From the NCBI GenBank assembly GCA_965216875.1, contig OZ244207.1, positions 1,504,001-1,568,000 of the forward strand: DNA of 64,000 nt. Direction: 5' to 3'. Both the position numbers and the translations under genes were made by a program. Position 1 is the first letter of the stretch. Each line of letters begins with the position of its first letter. Below, piece by piece: positions 6,027-19,870 of the stretch. The stretch is from Rubripirellula sp. (lineage in GTDB: Bacteria; Planctomycetota; Planctomycetia; Pirellulales; Pirellulaceae). Under the pieces are notes generated by a model. It saw only the letters and a program-made list of their open reading frames with translations. It was not told where the DNA came from and searched no databases.

Positions 6027-7595
6027 ATGGATCGGTGTTTACTTCTTTTGGCAATCGTTGCACTTGCGCCGAGTCTGCCAAAGGCCACCGCGGCGGAGCG
6101 TCCCAATGTGGTCATCATCATGGCCGACGATATGGGTTACTCCGATATTGGATGCTACGGTGGTGAGATTCAGACGCCGAACCTGGATCGTCTTGCCGCG
6201 AACGGATTGAGGTTCACTCAGTTCTACAATACGGCTCGTTGTTGCCCGACGCGAGCGGCGTTGTTGACCGGATTGCATCAGCATCAAACCGGCATCGGCG
6301 CGATGACCGAAACGCCCAAGGGGCCACGCGACGATGCTCGGCCAGCGTACCAGGGCTATTTGAATCGCAACTGTGTGACGATGGCCGAAGTGCTCGGCGC
6401 ATCGGGGTATCACACTTACATGGCGGGCAAGTGGCACCTTGGATACCACGGCAAAGAAAAGTGGCCGCGGCAACGTGGGTTTGATCGCTTCTACGGCGCG
6501 ATCGCTGGCGCGACCAGTTACTTCATACCTCAAGGTGGCCGAGGCGTCACGCTTGACAACCAGAATCTCGAACCGCCGACCGATCCCGACTACTACACGA
6601 CCGACGCCTTCACCGATTATGCGATCGAATTCTTGGGCGAGCAAAGTGATGATCGCCCCTTCTTCCTTTACCTCGCTTACACCGCTCCTCATTGGCCGCT
6701 TCACGCTCGCGAGGCAGAGATCGCCAAGTACGTTGGCAGCTACCGCGATATCGGATGGGACAAGCTGCGCGAGCAACGGCTGAGACGGCAAAAGCAACTG
6801 GGCATCGTCGATGATTCCGTTGAATTGCCCACCCGCGACGAGGGTGCGCGGCCATGGGTTGAATTGAACGACAAGCAAAAGGACCAGCTCGACTATCGCA
6901 TGGCCGTCTACGCCGCGATGGTGGACCGGATGGACCAGAACATTGGCCGCGTCGTCCAATGGCTACAAGAACACGATCAGCTCGATAACACACTTCTGCT
7001 GTTCCTCAGTGACAACGGCGGTTGCGCCGAGCCCTACAAGGACCTTGGTGGCGGCAAGTTTTCCGACATCAACAATCCAAACCAATCAGGCGCCATCAGT
7101 TACGGACAGGGCTGGGCCAACGCCAGCAACACGCCCTTTCGCAAGTTCAAAGTCTTTAGTCACGAAGGTGGTATTTCGACGCCGTTGATTGCTCACTGGC
7201 CAGCTGGGCTCAAATCCAATCCGGGTGCAATCACCAGCGCGCCTGCTCAATTGATTGACTTGATGCCAACGGTCCTTGATGCGTGTGGCGCGAGTTATCC
7301 GAAAACGTTTGCTGGGCACAAGATTCACCCTTTGGAAGGTGTGAGCCTTGGGACAACCCTTGCGGGCAAAAAACGGAAGCAAGCTGAATGGATGTATTGG
7401 GAACACGCGGGGCATGCCGCAGTCCGCCATGGCGATTTCAAAGCACTCCTGCCGAGACGAACCAAGGCATGGCAACTCTACGATCTAGCCATCGATCGCC
7501 AGGAACAAAACGACCTTGCTTCCGAAAAGCCGGAGTTGACGAAAACGATGGCCGCGCAATGGGAACGTTGGGCAAAAACGCACGGCGTCAAGTAA
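6027..7595 (+). CDS. Arylsulfatase (formylglycine-dependent)
   Basis: GGAGG at 6015 precedes ATG 6027. Contains RPNVVIIMADD, canonical CCPTRAALLTG, GKWHLG, YTAPHWP and SDNG. Confidence 0.95.
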   Translation: MDRCLLLLAIVALAPSLPKATAAERPNVVIIMADDMGYSDIGCYGGEIQTPNLDRLAANGLRFTQFYNTARCCPTRAALLTGLHQHQTGIGAMTETPKGPRDDARPAYQGYLNRNCVTMAEVLGASGYHTYMAGKWHLGYHGKEKWPRQRGFDRFYGAIAGATSYFIPQGGRGVTLDNQNLEPPTDPDYYTTDAFTDYAIEFLGEQSDDRPFFLYLAYTAPHWPLHAREAEIAKYVGSYRDIGWDKLREQRLRRQKQLGIVDDSVELPTRDEGARPWVELNDKQKDQLDYRMAVYAAMVDRMDQNIGRVVQWLQEHDQLDNTLLLFLSDNGGCAEPYKDLGGGKFSDINNPNQSGAISYGQGWANASNTPFRKFKVFSHEGGISTPLIAHWPAGLKSNPGAITSAPAQLIDLMPTVLDACGASYPKTFAGHKIHPLEGVSLGTTLAGKKRKQAEWMYWEHAGHAAVRHGDFKALLPRRTKAWQLYDLAIDRQEQNDLASEKPELTKTMAAQWERWAKTHGVK

Positions 7596-7821
7596 CGTGT
7601 GTGCTTGCACGCACTGAGCCAGAGCCAGTTGCCGATCTCGAAACGGAGCCGATCTCAGCAGGGGGCTTGCGAGTTGAGTGTCGCCGGTTCGACTGAAAAG
7701 TAGTTGATCAGGTACACCCGGTCATTGCCGGCAAACGCCTCTACCTACGCGAGCAGGACCAATTGCATTGCTACGACATCTCGGCAGCGCCATAGAATCG
7801 GTCGCGAGCGAGGCATGCGTC

Positions 7822-8967
7822 TTAGCAGAGGGCGGCTTCGCGTTCGGTTGCCACTGGATCACTGAACTCGTTTTCAATTTCCAGGATGGTGTCCAGCGCG
7901 GCGACAAATGCATCGACGACGTGAGGGTCGAAATGACTTCCCGCGTCGTTTTGGATGATGCCGATCGATTTTTCGATCGAGAATGGCTGTTTGTACGGGC
8001 GCTCGCTGCGCAGGGCATCGTAAACGTCGGCAACGGCAACGATGCGGCCAACCAAGGGGATTGCTTGTCCAGCCAAACCGTTCGGGTATCCCTGGCCGTT
8101 CCATTTTTCGTGATGAGAGGCCGCAATGGTTGCGGCAAGCTCAACGACTGGATTCGCGATTTGACCGCGTGCACTTACGCCCAAGCCTGGCGCGCAGCCT
8201 GCGGCGACACTCGAGAACCGACATGGATCCGTGAGAATCGCGACACCAATGTCACAGTGGGAGCGCATCACCGACCACTGCTCGTCGGAGAGTTTTCCCG
8301 GTTTGAGTAGGACGGAGTCAGGAATACCGATCTTTCCGATGTCATGTAGCGGCGCGGCCAAGAAAAGGTCATCAGCCAGCGATTGCTCGAGGCCCATCTC
8401 TTCGGCGATCACTTTCGCGTAGCTTCCCACGCGAACGACGTGGTTCCCGGTTTCTTCGTCCCGATATTCGGCCGCTTTCCCAAGCCGCCAAATGATGTCG
8501 ATCTGTGAGAACGCGAGCTCGGCGGTTCGTTCTTTCACCCGGCGCTCGAGAATCTGGTTGTGGTCTTTGAGTTGGTCCAAGCAGTCCTTGAGCCTCAGCG
8601 AAGAGCGGATGCGGGCGACAAGTTCGTCAATGTCGACTGGCTTGTTCAGCAAATCGTCGGCGCTTCGATCAAGGGCTCGGCGTTTGAGTTCGCGGTCCGC
8701 TTCGCCAGTCACGATCACAAAAGGAATGTCAGCCGTCTTTGGATTGTTCTTAACTGCTTCAAGAAGCTCCAATCCCGTCATGCCCGGCATTCGGACATCA
8801 GAGATGATTGTGTCATAGGCGGTTTGGCGAATCTGCTCGAGTGCATCGATGGGGCAGCTGCAAAAATCGAGCTGCCATTTTTGTCGAAACTCACGAAGTG
8901 ATCGCTCATAGGCTTTCAGCACATTGGGTTCGTCATCAACAAAAAGAATGCGTTTGCGGTTGATCAT
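7822..8967 (-). CDS. Response regulator with HD-GYP c-di-GMP phosphodiesterase domain
   Basis: REC domain (LFVDDE, SDVRMP, KP) followed by ETGNHVVRV, PLHDIGKIG, HHEKWNGQGYPNGL and ADVYDALRSERPYK. Confidence 0.95.
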   Translation of the reverse strand: MINRKRILFVDDEPNVLKAYERSLREFRQKWQLDFCSCPIDALEQIRQTAYDTIISDVRMPGMTGLELLEAVKNNPKTADIPFVIVTGEADRELKRRALDRSADDLLNKPVDIDELVARIRSSLRLKDCLDQLKDHNQILERRVKERTAELAFSQIDIIWRLGKAAEYRDEETGNHVVRVGSYAKVIAEEMGLEQSLADDLFLAAPLHDIGKIGIPDSVLLKPGKLSDEQWSVMRSHCDIGVAILTDPCRFSSVAAGCAPGLGVSARGQIANPVVELAATIAASHHEKWNGQGYPNGLAGQAIPLVGRIVAVADVYDALRSERPYKQPFSIEKSIGIIQNDAGSHFDPHVVDAFVAALDTILEIENEFSDPVATEREAALC

Positions 8968-10091
8968 GCGTTGACTGGCTCAAGGTTACTCGGATTTCGA
9001 ATCGTTCGAACCAAGATTGGTTCACGCACGCCGCTGGCGGATTGCCTGACAACCTGCAATTTCTGTAGCATCGCTTCATGGACTTCGTTGCCCGCAGCGA
9101 CAAGGACACGTCCTTCCTGGTCTTCCACATGCGATTCCAAGACCATGCCAACTTTCAGGTCGGCAACGGCGACCTCGACAACGTCTTCGGGTTCCGAAGT
9201 TACCTCTTTCAGAGCGGCCAATACCTGTGGATCGTATGCCGGGTCATTGCTCAGGTGCTCGATCGCCATTTCGTTGGTCCATTTCACAACCAAACGCTGG
9301 TAGTCGCCGACTGCCTTCAGGATGCGTGACGCAATGGGCGTCTCTTCTGTGGGGGCTGCGTTTTGCTTTGCAATGATCTCTGCGACGGGCTTAAGACGGG
9401 GAATGGCTGCGATCAGCTCGCTGCCCGAACTGGGCGTACTGCCGACAAGGTCAGCCTCTTCGTCACTAAGGGGTTCGTTGCGCAAATAACGAACGAGCAA
9501 GTCTTGGGGGACAGAAACACAGCCGAGCCGCATCAGCATCGATGCCATTTCGATCTGCCACGCCGGTCCAACGCCGATGCGCGTTGCGATATCGGTCGTC
9601 AAGCGACGTGTTTCTTGGCACATGCCAAAGGCTTCGGGGATTGCCAAAGATAGAACCTGTGTCAGCACCTGGACGCTACCGGCAAGAGTGCTGTTGAGCA
9701 GCTCGGCCTCGGCGGTGATCAGTCGGTACTGTTCCAATCCGGCATCAATCGCTTGGGCGAGTGCTTCGGGTGGGCAGGGTTTGTTCAGGAATCGAAAGAT
9801 GTTTCCTTCGTTAACGGCATCGACTGCAGTTTTTTGATCCGCGTTGCCGGTGAGCATCATGCGCACGGTTTGCGGGGATCGTTCTCGAACCTTTAAAAGC
9901 AATTCGACGCCAGACATTTCGGGCATTTGCATGTCCGATACGACCACGGCGAAAGGCCCGCCTGTGTTGAGAGCTTCCAGCGCTTCGTGGCCACCCACGG
10001 CGAGCGTCAGGTCAAACCGTTTGCGCAGATGACGCTTGAAACCTTTGAGGACATTGGGTTCGTCATCGACGAGCAAGATCTTTGGCGTCAT
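8964..10091 (-). CDS. Response regulator with degenerate HD/HD-GYP-like output domain
   Basis: Intact REC domain (LLVDDE, SDMQMP, KP). In the HD-like region HDIGK is replaced by MRLGC and the GYP segment is absent. ATGA overlaps at both ends. Confidence 0.85.
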   Translation of the reverse strand: MTPKILLVDDEPNVLKGFKRHLRKRFDLTLAVGGHEALEALNTGGPFAVVVSDMQMPEMSGVELLLKVRERSPQTVRMMLTGNADQKTAVDAVNEGNIFRFLNKPCPPEALAQAIDAGLEQYRLITAEAELLNSTLAGSVQVLTQVLSLAIPEAFGMCQETRRLTTDIATRIGVGPAWQIEMASMLMRLGCVSVPQDLLVRYLRNEPLSDEEADLVGSTPSSGSELIAAIPRLKPVAEIIAKQNAAPTEETPIASRILKAVGDYQRLVVKWTNEMAIEHLSNDPAYDPQVLAALKEVTSEPEDVVEVAVADLKVGMVLESHVEDQEGRVLVAAGNEVHEAMLQKLQVVRQSASGVREPILVRTIRNPSNLEPVNA

Positions 10092-11302
10092 CCCGCAGCC
10101 TCCGCAACGAGTTCGTCCCATGTTTCAAAATCGGTCTTCAACGAAAGCGATTGAAGGTATTCGCGATCGGGGCTCGGACGGTCGACACGTGCTTCGTCTG
10201 GCAGTCGGTGAGAGTGAATGACATTGGCGACGTGCACGGCCGTCAATGGACTGAAGTCGGTGCCCTTTGCGGCTGATGGTTGATGGTGAAAAGCAACGGC
10301 TTCAACGATCGGATTGGGAAATCCCCAAAGTCCAAGCAGGTGTGCGCCCACCTCTGCGTGCGTTGTCCCGAACTCATCGCGTTCGGCGTCGGAGACGGAA
10401 ATGGATTCGGCTTGGGCACGGGTTACCGCTTGGCAATACCGCTCGGGCAGATTCGCGGCAAGCACCAACTTGCCGAGGTCATGGATCATGCCTGCGATGA
10501 AGGCGTCGTCGACGAGCTGTGAGTCGCTTGCTTCCGCTTCAGCAATCGCCTTTGCTGTTGTGGCAACTGCGAGACCATGATCGAGTGATGCTCGCAGCGA
10601 ATAGCATTCGAGTTCCGGTTCTTTGAACGCGGCGAACGCGTTGGCTGTGAGGACCAAGGGTTGGATCACGTTGATGCCAAGTAGCGTCACTGCATGCTGA
10701 GGACAGGTTACATGTTGCGGCAACCCAAAGAATGACGAATTCACCAATTGCAGCACCTTTGCGGTCATCGCAAGGTCCGCGCTGATGATCTCGCCGACCG
10801 TCTCGATCGACGGTTCATGCGAGTTCAACTCAGCCAAAAGCTCTTTGTAAACGCACGGTAAACTTGGCAATGAATTGATTTGTGACGTCAGCCCCTTGAC
10901 GGCCGGATCGTCGAGTTGGGCACGCAACTCACAAGCTCTTTCGATCGTGCTGACCAAGACATCGGGTTCACATGGCTTGGACAGGAATTGATGCGCTGGG
11001 CCCACGGCGCGCATGATCTTCTCATGCTCGGATTGGCCGCTCAGAACAAGGCGAACCGTGTGAGGGTAGAGATCGGACACTCTACCGAGCAACTCAGCGC
11101 CGTCGATTCCGGGCATCCGCATGTCGCTGACGACGACGTCAAACGACTCAGTTTCCATCAAATCAAGTGCAGCGGCGCCGCCATTGGCGAACTGCATCTC
11201 CCAAACCTTTCTCTGGCCACGCAGCATGCGCCGCAATCCAGAGAGCACGTTTGCTTCGTCATCAACAAATAGGACTTTTGTCTTCGCTGTCATCGCTTTC
11301 AC
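10088..11302 (-). CDS. Response regulator with HDOD domain
   Basis: REC domain (LFVDDE, SDMRMP, SKP) followed by LPSLP, AKVLQLVNSSFFG, HDLGKL, HAEVGAHLLGLWGFP and FHH. Alternative start ATG 11293 after GAGG. Confidence 0.93.
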   Translation of the reverse strand: MKAMTAKTKVLFVDDEANVLSGLRRMLRGQRKVWEMQFANGGAAALDLMETESFDVVVSDMRMPGIDGAELLGRVSDLYPHTVRLVLSGQSEHEKIMRAVGPAHQFLSKPCEPDVLVSTIERACELRAQLDDPAVKGLTSQINSLPSLPCVYKELLAELNSHEPSIETVGEIISADLAMTAKVLQLVNSSFFGLPQHVTCPQHAVTLLGINVIQPLVLTANAFAAFKEPELECYSLRASLDHGLAVATTAKAIAEAEASDSQLVDDAFIAGMIHDLGKLVLAANLPERYCQAVTRAQAESISVSDAERDEFGTTHAEVGAHLLGLWGFPNPIVEAVAFHHQPSAAKGTDFSPLTAVHVANVIHSHRLPDEARVDRPSPDREYLQSLSLKTDFETWDELVAEAAG

Positions 11303-11311
11303 CTCGCCTTC

Positions 11312-12589
11312 TTAGCCCTCATTTCTGACCAACGCCGTGTCACTCACCCCGGCATTACTCACCCCGGCATTACTCACCGCTGCGTCTCGCTCTTGCGATT
11401 CGGTCTCTTGCACGAGCGGAATGCAGATCACGAAGGTCGTTCCGACGCCGAGTTCGGTTTCGACATTGATTGTGCCGCCATGCTTTTCGACGATCACGCT
11501 ATGTGCGATCGCAAGTCCTTGACCCGTTCCACGGCCCGCCGCTTTGGTTGTAAAGAATGGCCTGAAGATTCGGTCAAGGTGTTCTTCAGGGATGCCAGTT
11601 CCGCTGTCGCTTATCCGCAATTCGGCGTGTGAGCCAACTGTGCGAGCGGAGACCTTGATCCTCCCTTTCGATTCAGGGGATTCGCCCAACCGCGTCCCGA
11701 TGGCGTGTGCCGCATTGACCACCATGTTCAAGATGACCTGATTCAGTTCACCTGGCAGGCACGGGACGAGCGGAAGTGACTCGTCGAAATCGGTTTCGAG
11801 GTCGGCGACATACTTCCATTCATTTCGGGCGACCATGAGAGTGTTTTCAATCGCACGCGGAAGATCGATTGGCGTCATCTCGGCGGCGCCGGGATGTGCG
11901 AACTCTTTCATTGCTCGGACGATGTTCGTCACTCGCGTGATCCCCTCGAGGCTCTGTTCGATCGCGTTGGGTATTTCCTCGGACAGGTACTCAAGATCAG
12001 CGTTTTCCACTGCGTCACGAAGTGTTTTAGTCTGCTCGCCCAGCGGATGCGTTCCCTCGGTGGCCGTAAGTAAGTCTTGGCAACATGTCAGCACTTCCGA
12101 AAGGTCTTCGCACGCTTCCTGGATGAAACGAGTGTTGTCACCGACGTATTGAATGGGCGTGTTGATCTCGTGCGCAATTCCCGCCGCAAGCTCGCCAATC
12201 GATTCGAGCTTTTGTGCTTGAGCAAGTTGCGACTGCAGGTCACCGACGCGTCGAGCGACCTCCAGCTTTGAACGCAGTTGCGAGCGCGTCACCTTGCCGG
12301 TGATCGCATCATCAAATCCTTGTTCCGTCCAATCAACGTCACAGTCGCCACACCCACAGGCTGCAATGATCCAGGTTGCTCTTGGTCGCAGTTCCTTTGC
12401 GGACGTGCTGGCCTTTTCGATATCGGTGCAATCACTTTGAATCAGTGCGAAACCGGCAGTGCGTTGGTCTCCATGAACGTTCAGTTCGTCCAGGCTGGCC
12501 GCGGCAACCGGTTCGACGTTTAGTTCAGAAAGGGATTGGGCAATCTCCTTTCGGCGTTGGGCGTCACTGTCAATCAGAATGCTTAGCAT
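11312..12589 (-). CDS. Cytoplasmic histidine kinase with N-terminal pseudo-receiver-like domain
   Basis: H-box [14 protein letters not shown]-box [16 protein letters not shown] and [15 protein letters not shown]. The N-terminus is REC-like but lacks the acidic pair and DxxMP. Confidence 0.9.
11342..11378. repeat. 15-bp coding tandem repeat (about 2.5 copies)
   Basis: ACTCACCCCGGCATT twice plus ACTCACC, encoding VSNAG repeats in the kinase C-terminal tail. Confidence 0.9.
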
Positions 12590-13965
12590 GATGCCGCCCC
12601 TTCTTTTTGAGGTTGATGGGTCAGCGGAAGTCGAACAATGATGGTTGTTCCGGTGTCTGACGACTGCACTTGGATCGATCCGTCATGTTTGTCAACGACG
12701 ACGTCGTAGACGAACGCCAGGCCCTGGCCCGTTCCCTTACCGACTTCTTTGGTCGTAAAGAACGGGTCGAAAACGCGCTCCTGAATGTCAGGCGGAATAC
12801 CTGGTCCGTTGTCACTGACTCGGATTTCGATCGCGTCGCCATCGGTCGCTGTTTCAATGCTGACGACGCCAGCCCTCGTGTTGCCGTGCTTTTCTTGTAT
12901 GGCTTCTGCGGCGTTGGTCAACACATTCAACAGCGCTTGGTTCATTTGCCCGGGCAAACAAAGGACTTGCGGTAATGCCGAGTCGAATTTAGGAACGACT
13001 TCCGCGACGTCTCGAAACAGGTTTGCGGAAACGGTGATGACATTGTCGAGTGTTCGATTGAGGTCGACCGATGCTTTTGATTCGGCGGCCGGTTGCGAGA
13101 ATTCTTTCATCGCTCGGACAATCGAGGACACGCGCTCGATCCCTTCGACCGACTGCTTGATCGCATCGGGAAGCTCTTCGCGGAGAAACGGCAAATCTGC
13201 CAATTCGCTCTGCTCGTCGATTTGATCCAGGATCTTGTCGTCGGCCGTTCCGCTTTGAACGGAATGACGCAACGACTCATAAAGCTCCAGCAAATTGGTC
13301 AAGTCGTCAAAAGCTCCTTCCAGGAAGGAAACGTTATCTCCGACGAACTGAATTGGCGTGTTGATTTCGTGTGCGATGCCCGCCGCGAGCTGGCCGATCG
13401 ATTCCATTTTTTGCGCTTGCGATAACCTCGCTTCGAGCTTCTTGCGTCGTGAGAGGTCGCGCACCAACATCGTGAATGAAGTTGCACCTTGACGGTCGAC
13501 TCGGCTGATCGCGACTTCCGCGACGAAGGTCTTGCCCGTTGATCGGAAGGCGTTGATTTCGACGGGATCGCGGCCTTCGGGTTCCGTGTCGGCCTCTTCG
13601 TCGAGTTCGATGTCAAGGTCGGGAACCCTGTCGGGAAACAGCAGCGGCTCGTGACTCTGTTTTTTCGAAAAGAGATCCCTCACATTTGCCACCGAATCGA
13701 TGCCGAACCGGAAGATTCGGGCAGCCGATGGATTCATCGAGTCGATCTCGCCGGACTCGCCATAGGTGATGATGCCTTCAGCGGCGCCATCAAAAATGGC
13801 TTTGTACGACTCTGCCTGTTCGCCCAGCCGATCCGCCATTTCTTTGAGGTTGAGGTTGGCGTGATAGACTTCGCGAGTTTTCTCTTCGAGCAATTGTTCC
13901 GCCTGCTTGCGAGCTGCTCGTTCCCTTGCGCAGCGGCGCTTGAGCAGTTCTACGTCGTCGGACAT
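12583..13965 (-). CDS. H-NOX-associated PAS histidine kinase (HnoK-like)
   Basis: N-terminal coiled coil RERAARKQAEQLLEEKTREVY, a PAS domain (AEGIITY..NPSAARIF), H-box [16 protein letters not shown] and FFTTKEVGKGTGQGL. Overlaps the H-NOX gene by 16 nt. Confidence 0.92.
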   Translation of the reverse strand: MSDDVELLKRRCARERAARKQAEQLLEEKTREVYHANLNLKEMADRLGEQAESYKAIFDGAAEGIITYGESGEIDSMNPSAARIFRFGIDSVANVRDLFSKKQSHEPLLFPDRVPDLDIELDEEADTEPEGRDPVEINAFRSTGKTFVAEVAISRVDRQGATSFTMLVRDLSRRKKLEARLSQAQKMESIGQLAAGIAHEINTPIQFVGDNVSFLEGAFDDLTNLLELYESLRHSVQSGTADDKILDQIDEQSELADLPFLREELPDAIKQSVEGIERVSSIVRAMKEFSQPAAESKASVDLNRTLDNVITVSANLFRDVAEVVPKFDSALPQVLCLPGQMNQALLNVLTNAAEAIQEKHGNTRAGVVSIETATDGDAIEIRVSDNGPGIPPDIQERVFDPFFTTKEVGKGTGQGLAFVYDVVVDKHDGSIQVQSSDTGTTIIVRLPLTHQPQKEGAASC

Positions 13966-14534
13966 GCTGCTGTCTCTTCAGGTGCGTTGGCAGCCGACCG
14001 AGGACACAATGCAAAACGCGCTTCGGTGCCGTTTTGCTCACCAAGGTCTTCGCGTGCAACGTCAAGGTCATCATCGAAATAGTCGACGGCTGCACGAACC
14101 AAGCCTTCGGCCAAGTCGGCGAATGGGCGTTTGGACCGATAGGTCATTTCGAGTGTGCCATCGCCCTCGACGCAATCGAAGCTTGGTAGTTCGGCGTCGG
14201 GGTAGAGCTTACGAACCTCGACGTGGATGTAACTTTCCACGAGCGGCAAGAACTTGAGTGCGGAGTCAATGCCTTGGAAAAACTGTGGATAGAGTTTTGA
14301 GAACTGGGTGAAGAGGTGCCGCCCAAAGGTTTGCACGAGCTCGGCAACCGGAATTCCTGTCTCCTTGCTCAGCGACACGACCAGCTTGATCAGTTCACCG
14401 TGGTCGTAGGTTCCCACGGCCGTGTAGGCGCCATCTTCTTTGGTCTGCGCTCCGGCGATCATGCGGTCAGCGATCTCCAAACCGAGATCCTCTTCGACCA
14501 TTTCGATCAGCTCTGTAAAAACGATCCCTTTCAT
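13950..14534 (-). CDS. hnoX: H-NOX (haem nitric oxide/oxygen binding) protein
   Basis: MKGIVF start, YTAVGTYD, proximal His in YIHVEVRKLYP, conserved Pro in LPSF, and YxSxR haem motif (YRSKR). Confidence 0.95.
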   Translation of the reverse strand: MKGIVFTELIEMVEEDLGLEIADRMIAGAQTKEDGAYTAVGTYDHGELIKLVVSLSKETGIPVAELVQTFGRHLFTQFSKLYPQFFQGIDSALKFLPLVESYIHVEVRKLYPDAELPSFDCVEGDGTLEMTYRSKRPFADLAEGLVRAAVDYFDDDLDVAREDLGEQNGTEARFALCPRSAANAPEETAACPTT

Positions 14535-14578
14535 CAGTCTGCCCCTTTCATTTGTGACGGGTTGTTTTTGCGGAGGAC

Positions 14579-15022
14579 TTAGCCCCGCGTTTGTTGTTGT
14601 TTCAGTTCACTGAGTCTGTCATCCCGGCGCTGCAGCGGAATGAACCGTTGCACTTCGCTGGCCAGTTCTTCTGGCGACACTGGTTTCTCAAGGAAACCAC
14701 TTGCCCCAGCATCGATTGCCTCTGCATGTGTGTGAGGGCCGCCGTTACCGGTCAGAATGATCAGCGGGATGTCACGCACCGATTGGTTGTTGCGCATCCA
14801 GCTGAGCATTTCGATGCCTTGAACGCCTGGCATCTTGACGTCGCAGATCACCAGGTCAGGCTTTCGATTCGTGATTCTGCGAAAAGCTTGAATCGCGTTG
14901 TAGCAACTGGCGAAGCGAACAACGTACTTGCGAAAATAGCGGTGAAGCCCGCTGATAAAGTTTGGGTCGTCGTCGACGCACAGCACCCAGGGCGCATCAG
15001 CAAACGCAATTTCAGTATTCAT
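14579..15022 (-). CDS. Single-domain response regulator (CheY-like)
   Basis: ATG 15022 follows GGGGAGG. Contains VLCVDDD, DLVICDVKMP, ILTG and EKP. Confidence 0.92.
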   Translation of the reverse strand: MNTEIAFADAPWVLCVDDDPNFISGLHRYFRKYVVRFASCYNAIQAFRRITNRKPDLVICDVKMPGVQGIEMLSWMRNNQSVRDIPLIILTGNGGPHTHAEAIDAGASGFLEKPVSPEELASEVQRFIPLQRRDDRLSELKQQQTRG

Positions 15023-15042
15023 CGGATTCTGCCTCCCCGCGA

Positions 15043-15522
15043 CTAGCAGTTCGCCTCTTGCGACTGACAACTTCGACGCCAACGACCACGGCGAAAACCA
15101 TCGAGAATGCGACGCATTCGGCGCGAGTCGCCTTCCAGGTCAACGAACGTGCGTCCGTCAAAGAAGTCAACAAAGCCCGGCAACGTTTCGACAGTCGATG
15201 CATCGCTTACAAAGCCCATGCTCCATTGTCCGAAGTTGCGTTGCTCAATCTCTTCTTCAACCAACATCAGCACGGATGTGTGACGCTGGTCCTGAGAGAT
15301 CTTTTCGAAAAGCGATTCAACGACGCTTCGCTCACCTTCAAGGACTTGAAAGAACGTTGCGTCTTTGAAAAGCAAGACTCCGGTTACGCCCAGTCGCGTG
15401 TTGTTTTCTCGAGCTGCGTCAAGAAGGTTTGCAAGTTCCGCATCACTCATCGATACGGTTGCCGCGCTGGCGTAGACCAACTGAATCAGATCCCCGCCTG
15501 TGCCCAACTGGTTCGACATCAT
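15043..15522 (-). CDS. Stand-alone BLUF blue-light photoreceptor
   Basis: LVYAS (Tyr), ARENNTRLGVTGVL, FFQVLEG (Gln), DQRH and RNFGQWSMGF (Trp/Met). GGAG lies upstream of ATG 15522/15519. Confidence 0.95.
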   Translation of the reverse strand: MMSNQLGTGGDLIQLVYASAATVSMSDAELANLLDAARENNTRLGVTGVLLFKDATFFQVLEGERSVVESLFEKISQDQRHTSVLMLVEEEIEQRNFGQWSMGFVSDASTVETLPGFVDFFDGRTFVDLEGDSRRMRRILDGFRRGRWRRSCQSQEANC

Positions 15523-15909
15523 CGAACTCCGGTCGAGGTAGAAACTGCCCTCAACGACCAAGAAAGAGTCGTTGCCCCTGGCTCAAAAAAGAGCCTTATC
15601 CACTGGAAGCGTTGGTCGCGGCAGACAGGCTGGCAACGCGATGTGCGACGAAGTCTCACGGTTTGCCGCAAGCGAATCCGTGACCTTCTCGGTTGCACCG
15701 GTCGCACCGTTTGTGCCGCGGCAAGCAAGGCCAATTCGGAGAGCAAGGGCCAAAAAGCAAGGGAAAGAAAAGATCGGTTTCTTGGTTTCGGTTCGTGGCG
15801 CGCACGGCGGCGTTCGGTCCTTGCTTTGTAACCCCGCTGCACGGGTTGTCGATAAACGGATGCGGCAGGCAGCGAGCCAAGCACACACCAATCTTTCTAA
15901 GGTTGCGCC

Positions 15910-17268
15910 ATGAGTCGTCGTAAGAAACGTCGAGCGGTTTTCGTTGAATGTCTCGAAGCACGTCGCTGCCTCACAGCGAGTTTCGGATGGGACGGGCCAG
16001 GGCAGGGATCTGCCGAGTTGTCCTATCACATCGGCCAGGCGCCCTCGGGATTGTCACAGGGCCAATACGAACAAGCGATCGAATCCGCGCTTGAGGCCTG
16101 GAGCGACGTCGTCGACGTGACCTTCACCCGAACGGAAGTGCCGAACCAACGCGACGCCATCGACTTTCGGGTACGACCGATCGATGGCGCTGGCGGAACG
16201 CTCGCGCAAGCCTACCTGCCCGACGATGTGAATCCGGCCCGAATCGCCGGCGATGTCGAATTTGACGCTGCCGAAACTTGGGAGATTGGGAATGATCTCG
16301 GCAATCGAGCGTTCGATTTACTTCATGTGGCCGTTCACGAAATTGGTCACGCGCTAGGCATCGAACATCTTGATCATCACGACAGTGTCTTGGCACCGTT
16401 CGTCAACGCGGCACAAAGTTTTACGGCCTTGTCTGCGCATGACATCGATGCCGCGCTCGCACTCTATGCACCCGCTGATCCTGCCATTGAGCAACCGAAT
16501 GAGGGGCTTGATCACGATAGTCATTCGCACGAAGACCATGAGCATGGCGAAGACGTCGTCGATGAGACAACACCGGCCGAAGAGGATGCATCCGACGAAC
16601 CGCAAGACACGGACTCCACGTCGAACCAACCAAGACGGTATTGGCGTCCGTGGTTCGGTTTCTTTGCGCGATGGCGGGGCGGATGGCCTTGGTTCCGCGC
16701 AGGAGCAAATGCGACACCAGCCCATAACGCGGACAATCCGGCAGACGTTGATGGGGACGGAGAGATTTCGTCACGTGACGCCCTCTCGGTGCTTGTCCAT
16801 CTTGTTGATCCGAACGCAACCGAAGGCATGATGACGGATGCGAACGGCGACGGCATCACCTCCCTTGCGGACGCACTCGTGGTCATCAATGCAATGCGTC
16901 AAGAAGCAGCCTCGGATGAGATGGAAGGTGCTGACATCGAAGACGATGAGAATGAGACGGCCGACCAACCTGAGGACTTCGATGAGACCGAGGGGCCTCT
17001 CGATGATCACGCTGATGAATCAGACGACGAGCCTGAGCCCAAGATAGATGATGATCCAGTGATCGACGAGGAGGACGACGATGATGACGAGTCAGAGGAC
17101 GACCTCGATGGAAGCGGTGAACCAGACGTCGCTGGCGGCGGAACCGACGAGGAAGAGGATGATTCAGAAGATGAGGAGGACGACCTCGAAGAGGATCTAG
17201 ACGAGGACAACGAGGACAACGAGGACAACGAGGTTGAACTCGACGAATACGGATGCCCGTTAGCCTAG
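15910..17268 (+). CDS. Secreted matrixin (M10-like) metalloprotease with dockerin-like repeat and acidic tail
   Basis: Planctomycete export motif (ECLEARRCLTA), DGAGGTLAQAY and zinc motif HEIGHALGIEH. Dockerin-like DVDGDGEISSRDAL / DANGDGITSLADAL, then an Asp/Glu-rich C-terminus. Confidence 0.88.
   Translation: MSRRKKRRAVFVECLEARRCLTASFGWDGPGQGSAELSYHIGQAPSGLSQGQYEQAIESALEAWSDVVDVTFTRTEVPNQRDAIDFRVRPIDGAGGTLAQAYLPDDVNPARIAGDVEFDAAETWEIGNDLGNRAFDLLHVAVHEIGHALGIEHLDHHDSVLAPFVNAAQSFTALSAHDIDAALALYAPADPAIEQPNEGLDHDSHSHEDHEHGEDVVDETTPAEEDASDEPQDTDSTSNQPRRYWRPWFGFFARWRGGWPWFRAGANATPAHNADNPADVDGDGEISSRDALSVLVHLVDPNATEGMMTDANGDGITSLADALVVINAMRQEAASDEMEGADIEDDENETADQPEDFDETEGPLDDHADESDDEPEPKIDDDPVIDEEDDDDDESEDDLDGSGEPDVAGGGTDEEEDDSEDEEDDLEEDLDEDNEDNEDNEVELDEYGCPLA
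17201..17233. repeat. 9-bp coding tandem repeat (about 3.7 copies)
   Basis: ACGAGGACA repeated, encoding EDN repeats. Confidence 0.85.
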
Positions 17269-17365: not shown

Positions 17366-19870
17366 CTACTCCTTCCAGCGGATGTCGCCTTTGCGTTGAC
17401 GGATCTTCCATTTTTCGATCCCTGGTTCGCGGCGGACCGGGTTGTCTTGATCGGCTCGGAAATAGAGCGTCGTCCCGGTGATGCGTTGCAGGTTTTCCAA
17501 GGCAAACGCACGAACGGCCATCGAAGAGGAGTCGAGATACGCGACAAGTTCTTTATCGCCGCCCGCTTTGAGTTGTTGTTGTGAGTAACCAACAAGCATG
17601 CGTTGCAAATCGCGCGCATGGGCTGAATCGAGGTTCACGATCGCTCGGTTGATCGATTCGGCGCTGACCGAATTGAGGTCGATTGCGTCAAGAAGCGATT
17701 GGAAATGGCTTCCCCAATAGAGTCTTTGTTTGGGTTGGTTCATGATCCCATCACCGCCGAAATAGATATCCGCCCGACCCATCAGCAGGAGAGTTCGTGC
17801 GGCGAGGGCAGCGACTTCGGATCGACGAAACGATGTTGCTTCGGTGAGTGCGAGCTCAAGCGACGGCGCGCCCTGCAAGACAGCGAGCAATCCATCGCGC
17901 GCACTCGACTCAATCGACACCACACCGCTGGCCGGCGGATCGATCCATGGCAAGATCGAATCAACAGGGCTTGTCTCTTCGGACGAGTCGCCTTTTCGGA
18001 TCCATTGCACTCCTGTCGCGAGTTCATGTTCTTTGCTTTCGCTTGTGATGGTGAGCGGACCCTGTACGGCCAACGCTGCCATGAAGCGAGTGCGATTCTT
18101 CACGACGAGAGGATCCAGGCCTGGTGGTCGACTGAATTTCACACTCGCTGCGGCAGTTGCTCCCGCATCTTTAAATTGAAATTTAACGGGATGCCCTCCG
18201 AGGATGACCGTCATGTTGACACCCGGTTCATTGGCCTTGATGAGCACGCGACCGAATTGAACGTCGACGGTGAGTTGGCCACCATCGTCCTTGAGCACTA
18301 AACGACTGGCGCCGACCGAAGTGATTTCGGTGTTGTTGCTTGCTTGGAACGTCGCGCGGAAGGTCGGTGCAACAACAAGCGGCGTCCCGTCGCCGATCGC
18401 GGCGCCCGGTTTCAACCGCGTCCAATTGCCGCCGGATTGGCCTGTGACAATCAATGTTGGCCCATCGCCAAGCTTGGCAATTTCGACGGCTGGCGGTTTG
18501 GCCAAGTCATCGGGGTCGACGGGGGCCTCTTGCCCATTGGGATCATCAACGGGGGGTGGAGGCACAGGGGCGCCGGCTTCGCCAACCGTTGGTGGCACCG
18601 GCGGCGCGTCATTGGAAGCTGAATCCAACTTGTCGAGCGGAATCAATTCCATCTCGCCGATCGGCTTGACCTCTTCGCTAACCTCAACCGAAGCGGGAGC
18701 CCCGTTGGGATTGGGATCGACCGCAACGGGAATGGATTCGCCCGTGTCTTTGTCTGGGGCAGGCATCGGCAATGCATCGCCACCCGGAACTGGCGGCGCG
18801 AGATCATCAACATCGATCATGGCTTCTTCGATGTCCACGGATGCTTCGCCGCTGTTTTCGTCGTTTTCGTTGTCGACGGCGGCCGGCAGTACATCCGCTT
18901 GTTCGACCGGTTCCTGACCTTCGTCAACCGCGGGCGCCGGAATCACTTCCGCCCCCTCAGACGTTCCGATCTCTTCTGGGTTTGCATTCGTTTGATCGGT
19001 CGCGCCATTCGTTTGGTCGGATTCTGGCTCACCATCGGCTTGTTGGTTGTTTTCAACGATGGGGGAAAGATCGCCGTCCGCCTCGGCCAGCTTGCCATTG
19101 TCCAACAACGGGTAGAAGATTCGCGCGAGCGCAAAGAGGGTCACCGCGGTAAGGGCGAGGGTGACCAGCCAAGGTGTGATTCGTGAGGTTCGAACCGTTC
19201 CCCCGTAGAGAGAAGTTTCATCGGTCGCTCGCGGTTTAGTCCCGGCGATGGCGGGACCGGTTCCCGCGTTTGAAAGCGCATCATCGACCACGCCTGCTTC
19301 GCGCAGACGCGTTGGTGCGTCGGACACACCGGAATCTGCGATGCCAACCGGTTTGACGTCGCTTGGAGGTTCAGCCGCATTGGCATCGGCGGTCAGGATG
19401 TCGTCCTGCGAAGGGCCTAGATCGGGGCTTTCGGGAATGGAGACTGCCGAAAAGCTGCCAGAGGGCGTTGCGATCGATTCGATATTCTTTTCCGGGAGTT
19501 CGTAAATTCGTTGTCGCAGTTCGGGCGAAACCTCTGCCGACTTTCCCAGAATCAGAGTCAAAATTTGGTGACACGCGGCAGCCTCGGCCAGATGCGTGTC
19601 GGATTCCAAGCAGGCACGCTCGATTTCCGCAACCTGCTCGGGGGTCAACGTGCTGTCTAAGTACTCGCTGATCACATTGGCGTCTTCAACCGGGCCAACT
19701 GAATCGGGAGTCGGCGCGGAAAGTTCTCCATTGACCAAGCTTTGGCGAATGCGTTGAACGAGCGTTGTCGCAAATCCACTCTCGGACAGCTTGTCACGCA
19801 ATGCGCTGGCATCATCGGGGTCAAGCGTGTTGTCGAGATAAGCCAGCAGCGTACGCAGAGTCAATCGCAT
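17366..19870 (-). CDS. Conserved planctomycete single-pass membrane protein (anti-sigma-like N-terminus, acidic/Pro-rich linker, globular C-terminus)
   Basis: 834-aa ORF with MRLTLRTLLAYLD..SEYLDSTL..EAAACHQIL, one TM segment (WLVTLALTAVTLFAL) and a long low-complexity linker. Confidence 0.75.
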   Translation of the reverse strand: MRLTLRTLLAYLDNTLDPDDASALRDKLSESGFATTLVQRIRQSLVNGELSAPTPDSVGPVEDANVISEYLDSTLTPEQVAEIERACLESDTHLAEAAACHQILTLILGKSAEVSPELRQRIYELPEKNIESIATPSGSFSAVSIPESPDLGPSQDDILTADANAAEPPSDVKPVGIADSGVSDAPTRLREAGVVDDALSNAGTGPAIAGTKPRATDETSLYGGTVRTSRITPWLVTLALTAVTLFALARIFYPLLDNGKLAEADGDLSPIVENNQQADGEPESDQTNGATDQTNANPEEIGTSEGAEVIPAPAVDEGQEPVEQADVLPAAVDNENDENSGEASVDIEEAMIDVDDLAPPVPGGDALPMPAPDKDTGESIPVAVDPNPNGAPASVEVSEEVKPIGEMELIPLDKLDSASNDAPPVPPTVGEAGAPVPPPPVDDPNGQEAPVDPDDLAKPPAVEIAKLGDGPTLIVTGQSGGNWTRLKPGAAIGDGTPLVVAPTFRATFQASNNTEITSVGASRLVLKDDGGQLTVDVQFGRVLIKANEPGVNMTVILGGHPVKFQFKDAGATAAASVKFSRPPGLDPLVVKNRTRFMAALAVQGPLTITSESKEHELATGVQWIRKGDSSEETSPVDSILPWIDPPASGVVSIESSARDGLLAVLQGAPSLELALTEATSFRRSEVAALAARTLLLMGRADIYFGGDGIMNQPKQRLYWGSHFQSLLDAIDLNSVSAESINRAIVNLDSAHARDLQRMLVGYSQQQLKAGGDKELVAYLDSSSMAVRAFALENLQRITGTTLYFRADQDNPVRREPGIEKWKIRQRKGDIRWKE

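Follow-up and report, generated by a model that had tools for sequence, protein, structure and literature searches.

A 64,000-nucleotide stretch of the genome of Rubripirellula sp. (Planctomycetota, Pirellulaceae; GenBank assembly GCA_965216875.1, contig OZ244207.1, positions 1,504,001 to 1,568,000; the whole of this stretch is called the window below) contains a gene for a short BLUF protein at the head of a gene cluster around H-NOX. Judged by gene order in related genomes, BLUF is a conserved member of this H-NOX cluster and the first gene of a core cassette, BLUF - H-NOX - HK1 - HK2 - REC-HDOD - REC-degenerate HD-GYP - small REC (HK, histidine kinase), which is kept as a unit at varying genomic places in one lineage of the Pirellulaceae. 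The linkage suggests that light and nitric oxide (NO) may feed one signalling circuit.

Architecture of the cassette in Rubripirellula

All eight genes of the cluster lie on the minus strand. BLUF (15043..15522; a stand-alone protein of 159 aa, or 158 from the second ATG; Pfam BLUF, E 2e-33) is followed by a CheY-like single-domain REC protein (14579..15022; 147 aa; Pfam REC), a stand-alone H-NOX (13950..14534; 194 aa; Pfam HNOB, E 2.6e-38), the soluble, HnoK-like histidine kinase HK1 (12583..13965; 460 aa; Pfam HATPase with weak PAS and HisKA matches), a second soluble kinase, HK2 (11312..12589; 425 aa; Pfam HATPase with a weak HisKA match), a REC-HDOD response regulator (10088..11302; 404 aa; Pfam REC and HDOD), a REC-degenerate HD-GYP protein, here gene 7 (8964..10091; 375 aa; Pfam REC and HD_5, with a small C-terminal beta domain), and, as the most 3' member, a REC-HD-GYP phosphodiesterase, here gene 8 (7822..8967; 381 aa; Pfam REC and HD/HD_5). 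The initial annotation described eight co-oriented reading frames, and this is confirmed to the base: all are intact, with gaps of 20, 44, -16, -7, 9, -4 and -4 bp. Its description of the first gene as an intact BLUF and of the last as an intact REC-HD-GYP agrees with the key residues, which are present in both, and its statement that none of the products has an obvious transmembrane segment also stands; the highest 19-residue Kyte-Doolittle means range from 0.89 to 1.55 across the eight proteins and, as they never exceed 1.55, none has a clear transmembrane helix.

BLUF and H-NOX each have one match in the 8.26 Mb genome, with 508 bp between them; since each is single-copy and the order recurs in 18 other genomes, their proximity is beyond chance. 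A single 15 kb contig of run X4 spans 7000-16500 with no differences; the run is possibly the source sample, and the contig thus argues only against a local mis-join. Three runs presumed to be RNA gave no contig on the stretch, which is no evidence on expression. A sigma-70 promoter scan of the stretch returned none against 2.4 expected, and a terminator scan 10 against 11.8 expected, with no minus-strand terminator in the interval from BLUF to H-NOX; neither scan is informative. Searches for the cassette, H-NOX and BLUF in two genomes of the same genus (84% and 97% complete) gave no match. Because both share the neighbouring DNA, from about window position 17400 onward, the cassette lies in a variable region.

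Conservation of the cassette across the Pirellulaceae

Among 401 genomes of the family, BLUF occurs in 87, H-NOX in 110 and both in 39, with 104 BLUF and 134 H-NOX matches placed by coordinates. In 19 of the 39, this genome included, BLUF lies upstream of H-NOX on the same strand and within 700 bp; these linked genomes represent seven genera (g1, g15, g24, g82, g88, g102 and g110). The other 20 have no BLUF/H-NOX pair within 20 kb, many of them with the genes on separate contigs. Lack of synteny with H-NOX in relatives had been named beforehand as part of what would refute the proposed circuit; with BLUF linked in 19 of 39 genomes, this does not hold for BLUF. The stop codon of BLUF and the start of H-NOX are 9-242 bp apart in the relatives, and at most 70 bp in 14 of the 18. 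The set BLUF - H-NOX - HK1 - HK2 - REC-HDOD is found in 18 of 18 relatives, so that REC-HDOD is present in 19 of 19 linked cassettes; REC-degenerate HD is present in 18 of 19, the remaining locus ending at a contig edge. A small REC gene comes after the degenerate HD gene in 17 of the 18 relatives (the 18th is cut by the contig end), and the present genome is without it.

Two parts of the initial annotation do not carry over to the relatives. The CheY-like gene had been taken as a member of the circuit, and none of the 18 relatives has a REC gene between BLUF and H-NOX; a search of 300 family genomes for a close orthologue, with about 13 candidates scored per genome, gave one weak match (38%). 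Hydrolysis of cyclic dimeric guanosine monophosphate (c-di-GMP) by the HD-GYP protein had been taken as the output, and it is not a constant one: an active REC-HD-GYP is encoded in only 7 of the 19 linked cassettes, and it is missing from 11 of the 18 complete linked loci.

The flanks of the cassette vary by locus and include GGDEF-FHA, PQQ_2, ROK, AAA, sulfatase, PGK, S1 and esterase genes (nearest open reading frames, 52 proteins selected from 87). In two genomes (G025 and G151) the cassette itself is permuted to HK2 - HDOD - degenerate HD - REC - REC - CheX-kinase - BLUF - H-NOX - HK1, so that BLUF-H-NOX-HK1 moved as one block. Close homologues of BLUF come from Rubripirellula, Stieleria, Crateriforma and Roseiconus. 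Locus L018, from a Rubripirellula sp. metagenome-assembled genome, has the cassette in full, and L019 has it without BLUF; both, like L037, duplicate other loci and are excluded from the counts.

Origin of the linkage

In a quick IQ-TREE analysis of H-NOX (73 rows: 19 linked and 54 others, mainly stand-alone, with most fused or fragmentary matches left out), all 19 linked rows fall into one clade of 23 (SH-aLRT 99). Within the 23 cassettes of this clade, BLUF is kept in 19 and HD-GYP in 8. A BLUF tree of the family alone did not resolve; a FastTree of 104 rows, covering 12 of the 20 unlinked BLUFs and 73 metagenome rows, yields a clade of 21 (SH-like support 98), consisting of the 19 linked BLUFs, that of G412 and a second copy in G378. 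Overall, 19 of the 85 unlinked family matches were retrieved, and there may be further detached members of this clade. As the linked H-NOX and the linked BLUF proteins form matching clades, the linkage probably had one origin followed by some losses, in trees that have no established root.

The detached second copy in G378 (L047:8903-10097) has the upstream element described below and is followed on the same strand by a REC gene and a gene for a 2900-aa DUF4347/SdrD-B adhesin-like protein.

The BLUF protein

The BLUF domain scores 114.8 bits against a Pfam cut-off of 25. The protein carries Y17, N41, Q59, W100 and M102, and its motifs LVYAS, RENN, FFQVLEG and QWSMG align to those of BlsA, BlrB and AppA; the photo-active Tyr, Gln and Met, together with the Asn and Trp, are retained in 19 of 19 linked BLUFs. 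An AlphaFold2 model (pLDDT 85) has the BLUF fold followed by C-terminal helices, with BlrB, BlsA and PixD as top Foldseek matches. By residues and model, the protein is a predicted blue-light photoreceptor. Its C-terminal cap is conserved and ends in GFRRGRWRR; among the linked BLUFs, mean pairwise identity is 0.61 in the cap versus 0.60 in the core.

A comparison with the ESM Atlas returned generic BLUF clusters only, and no fusion of BLUF to H-NOX or to a kinase was found among the three longer matches of 1304 candidates, which is a weak test. Complex prediction for BLUF (residues 8-152), H-NOX and two HK1 copies (residues 1-295), entered as alignments, gave scores of 0.30 and 0.01 against a mark of 0.32, with controls not folded, and weighs neither way. 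The idea that the basic BLUF cap pairs by charge with the acidic insert of the HK1 PAS domain was set aside as a lead only: the insert has a charge of -3 to -12 in linked kinases versus +2 to -6 in others, and it is poorly conserved, while a basic cap is ancestral. A mirror-tree correlation, with its highest partial value for H-NOX (0.40), was discarded, since the pairs are non-independent and adjacency accounts for the value.

H-NOX, the kinases and the response regulators

In H-NOX, His104, Pro117 and Y132-S134-R136 are all present in alignments to 6OCV, 6BDE and 2KII, and the solved structures nearest to it are of stand-alone H-NOX proteins, some of the entries bearing the name of NO-binding sensors. 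O2-binding members carry a distal-pocket Tyr five residues after the Arg of YxSxR (Y140 in Caldanaerobacter). Here this position is Leu141, as it is Leu in all 23 clade members shown, and the protein does not qualify for the O2-binding subclass; because Leu141 stands where those members have the distal Tyr, H-NOX is predicted to be NO-selective.

The H-NOX and HK1 genes overlap by 16 bp. HK1, which has no transmembrane segment, starts with an RERxARKxAE helix, continues with a PAS domain that contains the acidic insert, and has H199 in AHEINTP and intact N, G1 and G2 ATP boxes. HK2 has H140 in AHEINTP and the ATP-binding boxes; its N-terminal 115 aa are its least conserved part (28% mean identity) and may represent a decayed receiver. 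The RERxARKxAE helix of HK1 recurs in whatever protein comes after H-NOX, be it a kinase, a hybrid kinase or another protein (L059-L108), a pattern that suggests a portable H-NOX docking helix.

The phospho-Asp, the Thr/Ser and the Lys are present in all four recognisable receivers: the CheY-like protein has Asp61, Thr91 and Lys113, and REC-HDOD has Asp60, with HDLGK and HH retained in its second domain. In gene 7 the HD motif has become MR, and HHE and the GYP loop are gone; the same losses are seen in the 8 of 22 orthologues inspected and in the consensus. A fold search with gene 7 returned receiver-domain matches only, its C-terminal part having no sequence match in the PDB. Gene 8 has intact E185-equivalent, HD, HHEKWNGQGYP, ADVYD and RPYK motifs in an alignment to PmGH (4MCW, E 1.3e-53), with the motifs defined as in 10.1101/2021.11.05.467447; by these motifs it is predicted to be an active c-di-GMP phosphodiesterase.

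A conserved upstream element

An element with a consensus of about TGACACAnnTTTC lies at 15602..15621 on the minus strand, about 80-100 nt before the BLUF start, and elements of this type occur 100-140 nt ahead of the QLVY codon across linked loci. The mean site score is 17.0 versus 11.9-13.5 in eight shuffles, which had fewer restarts; in a leave-one-out comparison of 15 non-redundant linked loci, 12 scored above every one of the 60 random genome windows, one fell just short and two did not pass. The element is not present where BLUF is internal (G025 and G151), and it scores 16.8 before the detached BLUF of G378, but only 4.6-8.3 before BLUF-less cassettes. It is a candidate part of a promoter or operator, which fits a promoter at the operon head but also a BLUF-specific element. 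A role as a genome-wide promoter motif was rejected, its matches not being enriched between genes.

Relatives of BLUF outside the family

The best 80 of 506 metagenome relatives of BLUF (40-50% identity; 44 loci of at least 5 kb) have an EAL gene directly downstream in 33 cases, are BLUF-EAL fusions in 4, have neither in 29 and lie on pieces too short to tell in 14; the EAL neighbours are Pfam-confirmed for a subset of the loci. No EAL gene was found in the window or in the 18 linked loci. Since distant relatives of this BLUF mostly adjoin EAL genes, it looks, by neighbourhood, like a PapB-type sensor that has been taken into an Hno-type relay. In some metagenome loci (L135-L197) the reading frame of BLUF runs into that of EAL, and tandem BLUFs occur in some. 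One plasmid region has the order HD - HDOD - H-NOX - kinase, and an association of H-NOX with HDOD alone is thus not special.

Variant cassettes and neighbouring genes

Four loci (L012:5704-7206, L027, L070 and L082) hold cassettes with an extra kinase that has a CheX-like domain and with a second CheY-like gene. In three related genomes (L026, L030 and L036) the small REC gene is followed on the same strand by a tandem CBS-domain gene. Apparent frameshifts, either sequencing errors or real decay, divide HK1 in L033, L036 and L096 and HDOD in L022, and L114 holds a decayed H-NOX cassette. The frame at L116:4067-5662 (G245) joins H-NOX (HNOB E 1.9e-31) to a Ser/Thr protein kinase domain (Pkinase E 6.2e-45). 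H-NOX also lies in frames of 500-620 aa in about 20 further genomes of the family, the kinase fusion being confirmed for G245 alone, and a family of NO-regulated Hanks-type kinases in the Pirellulaceae is possible on this evidence.

The plus strand of the window encodes, at 15910-17268, a divergent peptidase of the matrixin (M10) type that has a dockerin-like repeat as well as a very acidic tail; its counterpart in G002 sits 175 kb off the remaining syntenic block.

Comparison with known systems

The closest parallel is the Hno network of Shewanella oneidensis (HnoX, HnoK, HnoS, HnoB, HnoC and HnoD), in which a stand-alone H-NOX likewise adjoins a soluble kinase, another kinase is present, and the pathway branches to several response regulators, among them a degenerate REC-HD-GYP, HnoD, which acts by contact (PMC6335343 and 10.1101/2021.11.05.467447). 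The likeness to HnoK and HnoD is one of architecture and motifs. Unlike the Shewanella network, the eight genes include neither a REC-EAL protein (HnoB) nor a DNA-binding regulator (HnoC); the cassette instead has REC-HDOD and an optional active REC-HD-GYP, forms one cluster, and has BLUF at its head. In the Burkholderia NosP-NosK-NosR system, a kinase without a sensor of its own is likewise under the control of an auxiliary NO sensor, and it phosphorylates a degenerate REC-HD-GYP (PMC12570481); the NosP sensor, however, is a FIST protein and not an H-NOX, and there is no light input. Genes 6, 7 and 8 match the NCBIfam model NosR (NF053512) best, at 141.7, 203.5 and 196.4 bits, all far below its 400-bit cut-off.

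On the side of the light sensor, PapB-PapA of Rhodopseudomonas palustris shares with the present protein a short BLUF with a C-terminal helical cap, a partner-based action and a wider subfamily that is mostly EAL-adjacent, the kinship being one by description; it differs in that the linked loci are without EAL and the neighbour of BLUF is H-NOX. PixD-PixE of Synechocystis sets the precedent that a short BLUF can act on a protein of two-component type, PixE being a receiver-type partner of PixD; it has no heme or NO sensor and no c-di-GMP enzyme, and PixD is about 31% identical over the aligned fold. AppA of Rhodobacter sphaeroides combines a BLUF domain with a second, redox input and has a heme-binding SCHIC domain, but is an antirepressor of one polypeptide, whereas the BLUF described here stands alone next to an H-NOX kinase relay.

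A proposed mechanism and its alternatives

The cassette is real, conserved and lineage-restricted, a variant of the Hno-type relay with a probable light input. On balance we lean slightly towards a reading in which light and NO both tune this phosphorelay, its BLUF partner, co-transcription and light effect all being hypothetical, as is the role in attachment or swarmer release on algal surfaces that the initial annotation proposed. A soluble Hno-type phosphorelay would have acquired a dedicated blue-light input. By analogy with Shewanella HnoX/HnoK, ferrous H-NOX would bind NO and then inhibit HK1, so that phosphoryl flow to the receivers drops, and the two kinases would feed several receivers. 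The BLUF cap would bind a cassette protein, as in PapB-PapA; the best guess is the H-NOX/HK1 complex and the next a receiver protein, and light would thereby shift the same phosphoryl flow. The main output would run through two regulators that are probably non-hydrolysing, REC-HDOD and REC-degenerate HD-GYP, by HnoD-like protein contact. In 7 of 19 genomes, including this one, an active REC-HD-GYP would provide an extra output by degrading c-di-GMP. The CheY-like protein of the present genome would be a local addition, perhaps a phosphate sink that replaces the small REC. As precedents, stand-alone BLUFs work by way of partner proteins, and HnoX, once it has bound NO, inhibits HnoK (PMC8846402). 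The most specific form of the proposal, that a PapB-type BLUF gave up its EAL partner and now binds the H-NOX/kinase complex directly, forming a sensor with two inputs whose NO signalling is gated by light, is tentative and rather unlikely.

Several observations weigh against a joint light and NO relay. Beyond the family, linkage was found in none of the five other phylum genomes with both genes (5 of 351), where they are 300-430 kb apart in two and on separate contigs in three; H-NOX was found at none of the 80 metagenome BLUF loci, and no BLUF is annotated within 6 kb of H-NOX in the five inspected of 20 plasmid H-NOX records. Four H-NOX cassettes of the same clade (G277, G335, G389 and G412), with the same downstream genes, have neither BLUF nor a remnant of it, and the relay thus exists without BLUF, while two BLUFs of the clade (in G412 and the second copy in G378) lie away from any cassette and have the same cap. 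The basic GRWR cap is ancestral in the BLUF subfamily and is found in EAL-associated BLUFs as well, and its conservation is therefore not specific to the cassette. As a single event probably gave rise to all linked copies, the 19 genomes are not 19 independent tests.

There are three alternatives. BLUF could be co-expressed with the relay but act in parallel, in trans and PapB-like, on an EAL protein or another target elsewhere, light and NO meeting only at c-di-GMP or behaviour. EAL is directly downstream or fused in 37 of the 80 best metagenome relatives, the two best longer homologues of BLUF are BLUF-EAL fusions, and PapB acts on the solo EAL protein PapA through its C-terminal helices (PMC8846402). 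This genome, too, encodes two EAL-type proteins, at C1:2512374-2513531 and C1:6532826-6534871, but neither is close to the BLUF-neighbouring EALs (profile of eight; best E 1.7e-25, 91 bits). The linked BLUFs form a clade separate from the EAL-linked ones, and there is less to keep a sensor that acts in trans beside H-NOX when the genes are rearranged; we regard this alternative as unlikely, if still a serious one. BLUF could also be a passenger, which landed once, with its own upstream element, before an H-NOX cassette and was inherited without a functional tie. One origin is likely, the element travels with BLUF, as its scores at the detached copy and at BLUF-less cassettes indicate, and four in-clade cassettes are without BLUF. 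Against this, adjacency persisted even as identity fell to 61-76% for H-NOX and to about 60% for BLUF, and it persisted though all flanks changed and HD-GYP is absent from 11 of 18 complete loci; in the permuted loci, BLUF is inside the operon, without the element, and still intact. A passenger appears improbable. The pairing could, finally, be one of light and redox, with H-NOX reporting heme oxidation or another ligand in a photo-oxidative-stress relay that is functionally AppA-like. Some H-NOX proteins do sense redox. AppA integrates light and redox (Table 2 of PMC4844311), but the nearest solved relatives of this H-NOX are stand-alone H-NOX proteins, some named NO-binding sensors, its heme-binding motifs are canonical, and the established mode is NO control of HnoK; a redox relay is very improbable.

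Significance

All parts of the cassette belong to known families. In the literature searched, mostly at the level of titles and abstracts, no description was found of a BLUF-H-NOX operon, of a planctomycete H-NOX pathway, or of a stand-alone BLUF as an accessory regulator of an H-NOX kinase, though supplementary tables of operons may include such a neighbourhood. If BLUF acts on this relay, a kinase pathway would join the short list of known partners of stand-alone BLUFs, and the cassette would be a defined example of a single bacterial circuit that integrates light and NO. Its proteins are soluble and small enough for reconstitution, natural variants (four cassettes without BLUF, 11 without HD-GYP) are available as controls, and the constant REC-HDOD output provides a way to test the function of an HDOD regulator.

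For the Planctomycetota, the cassette would offer a first handle on H-NOX signalling. NO is produced photochemically in sunlit water and, if BLUF binds the H-NOX/kinase complex directly, a surface-living planctomycete could treat NO in the light unlike NO in the dark.

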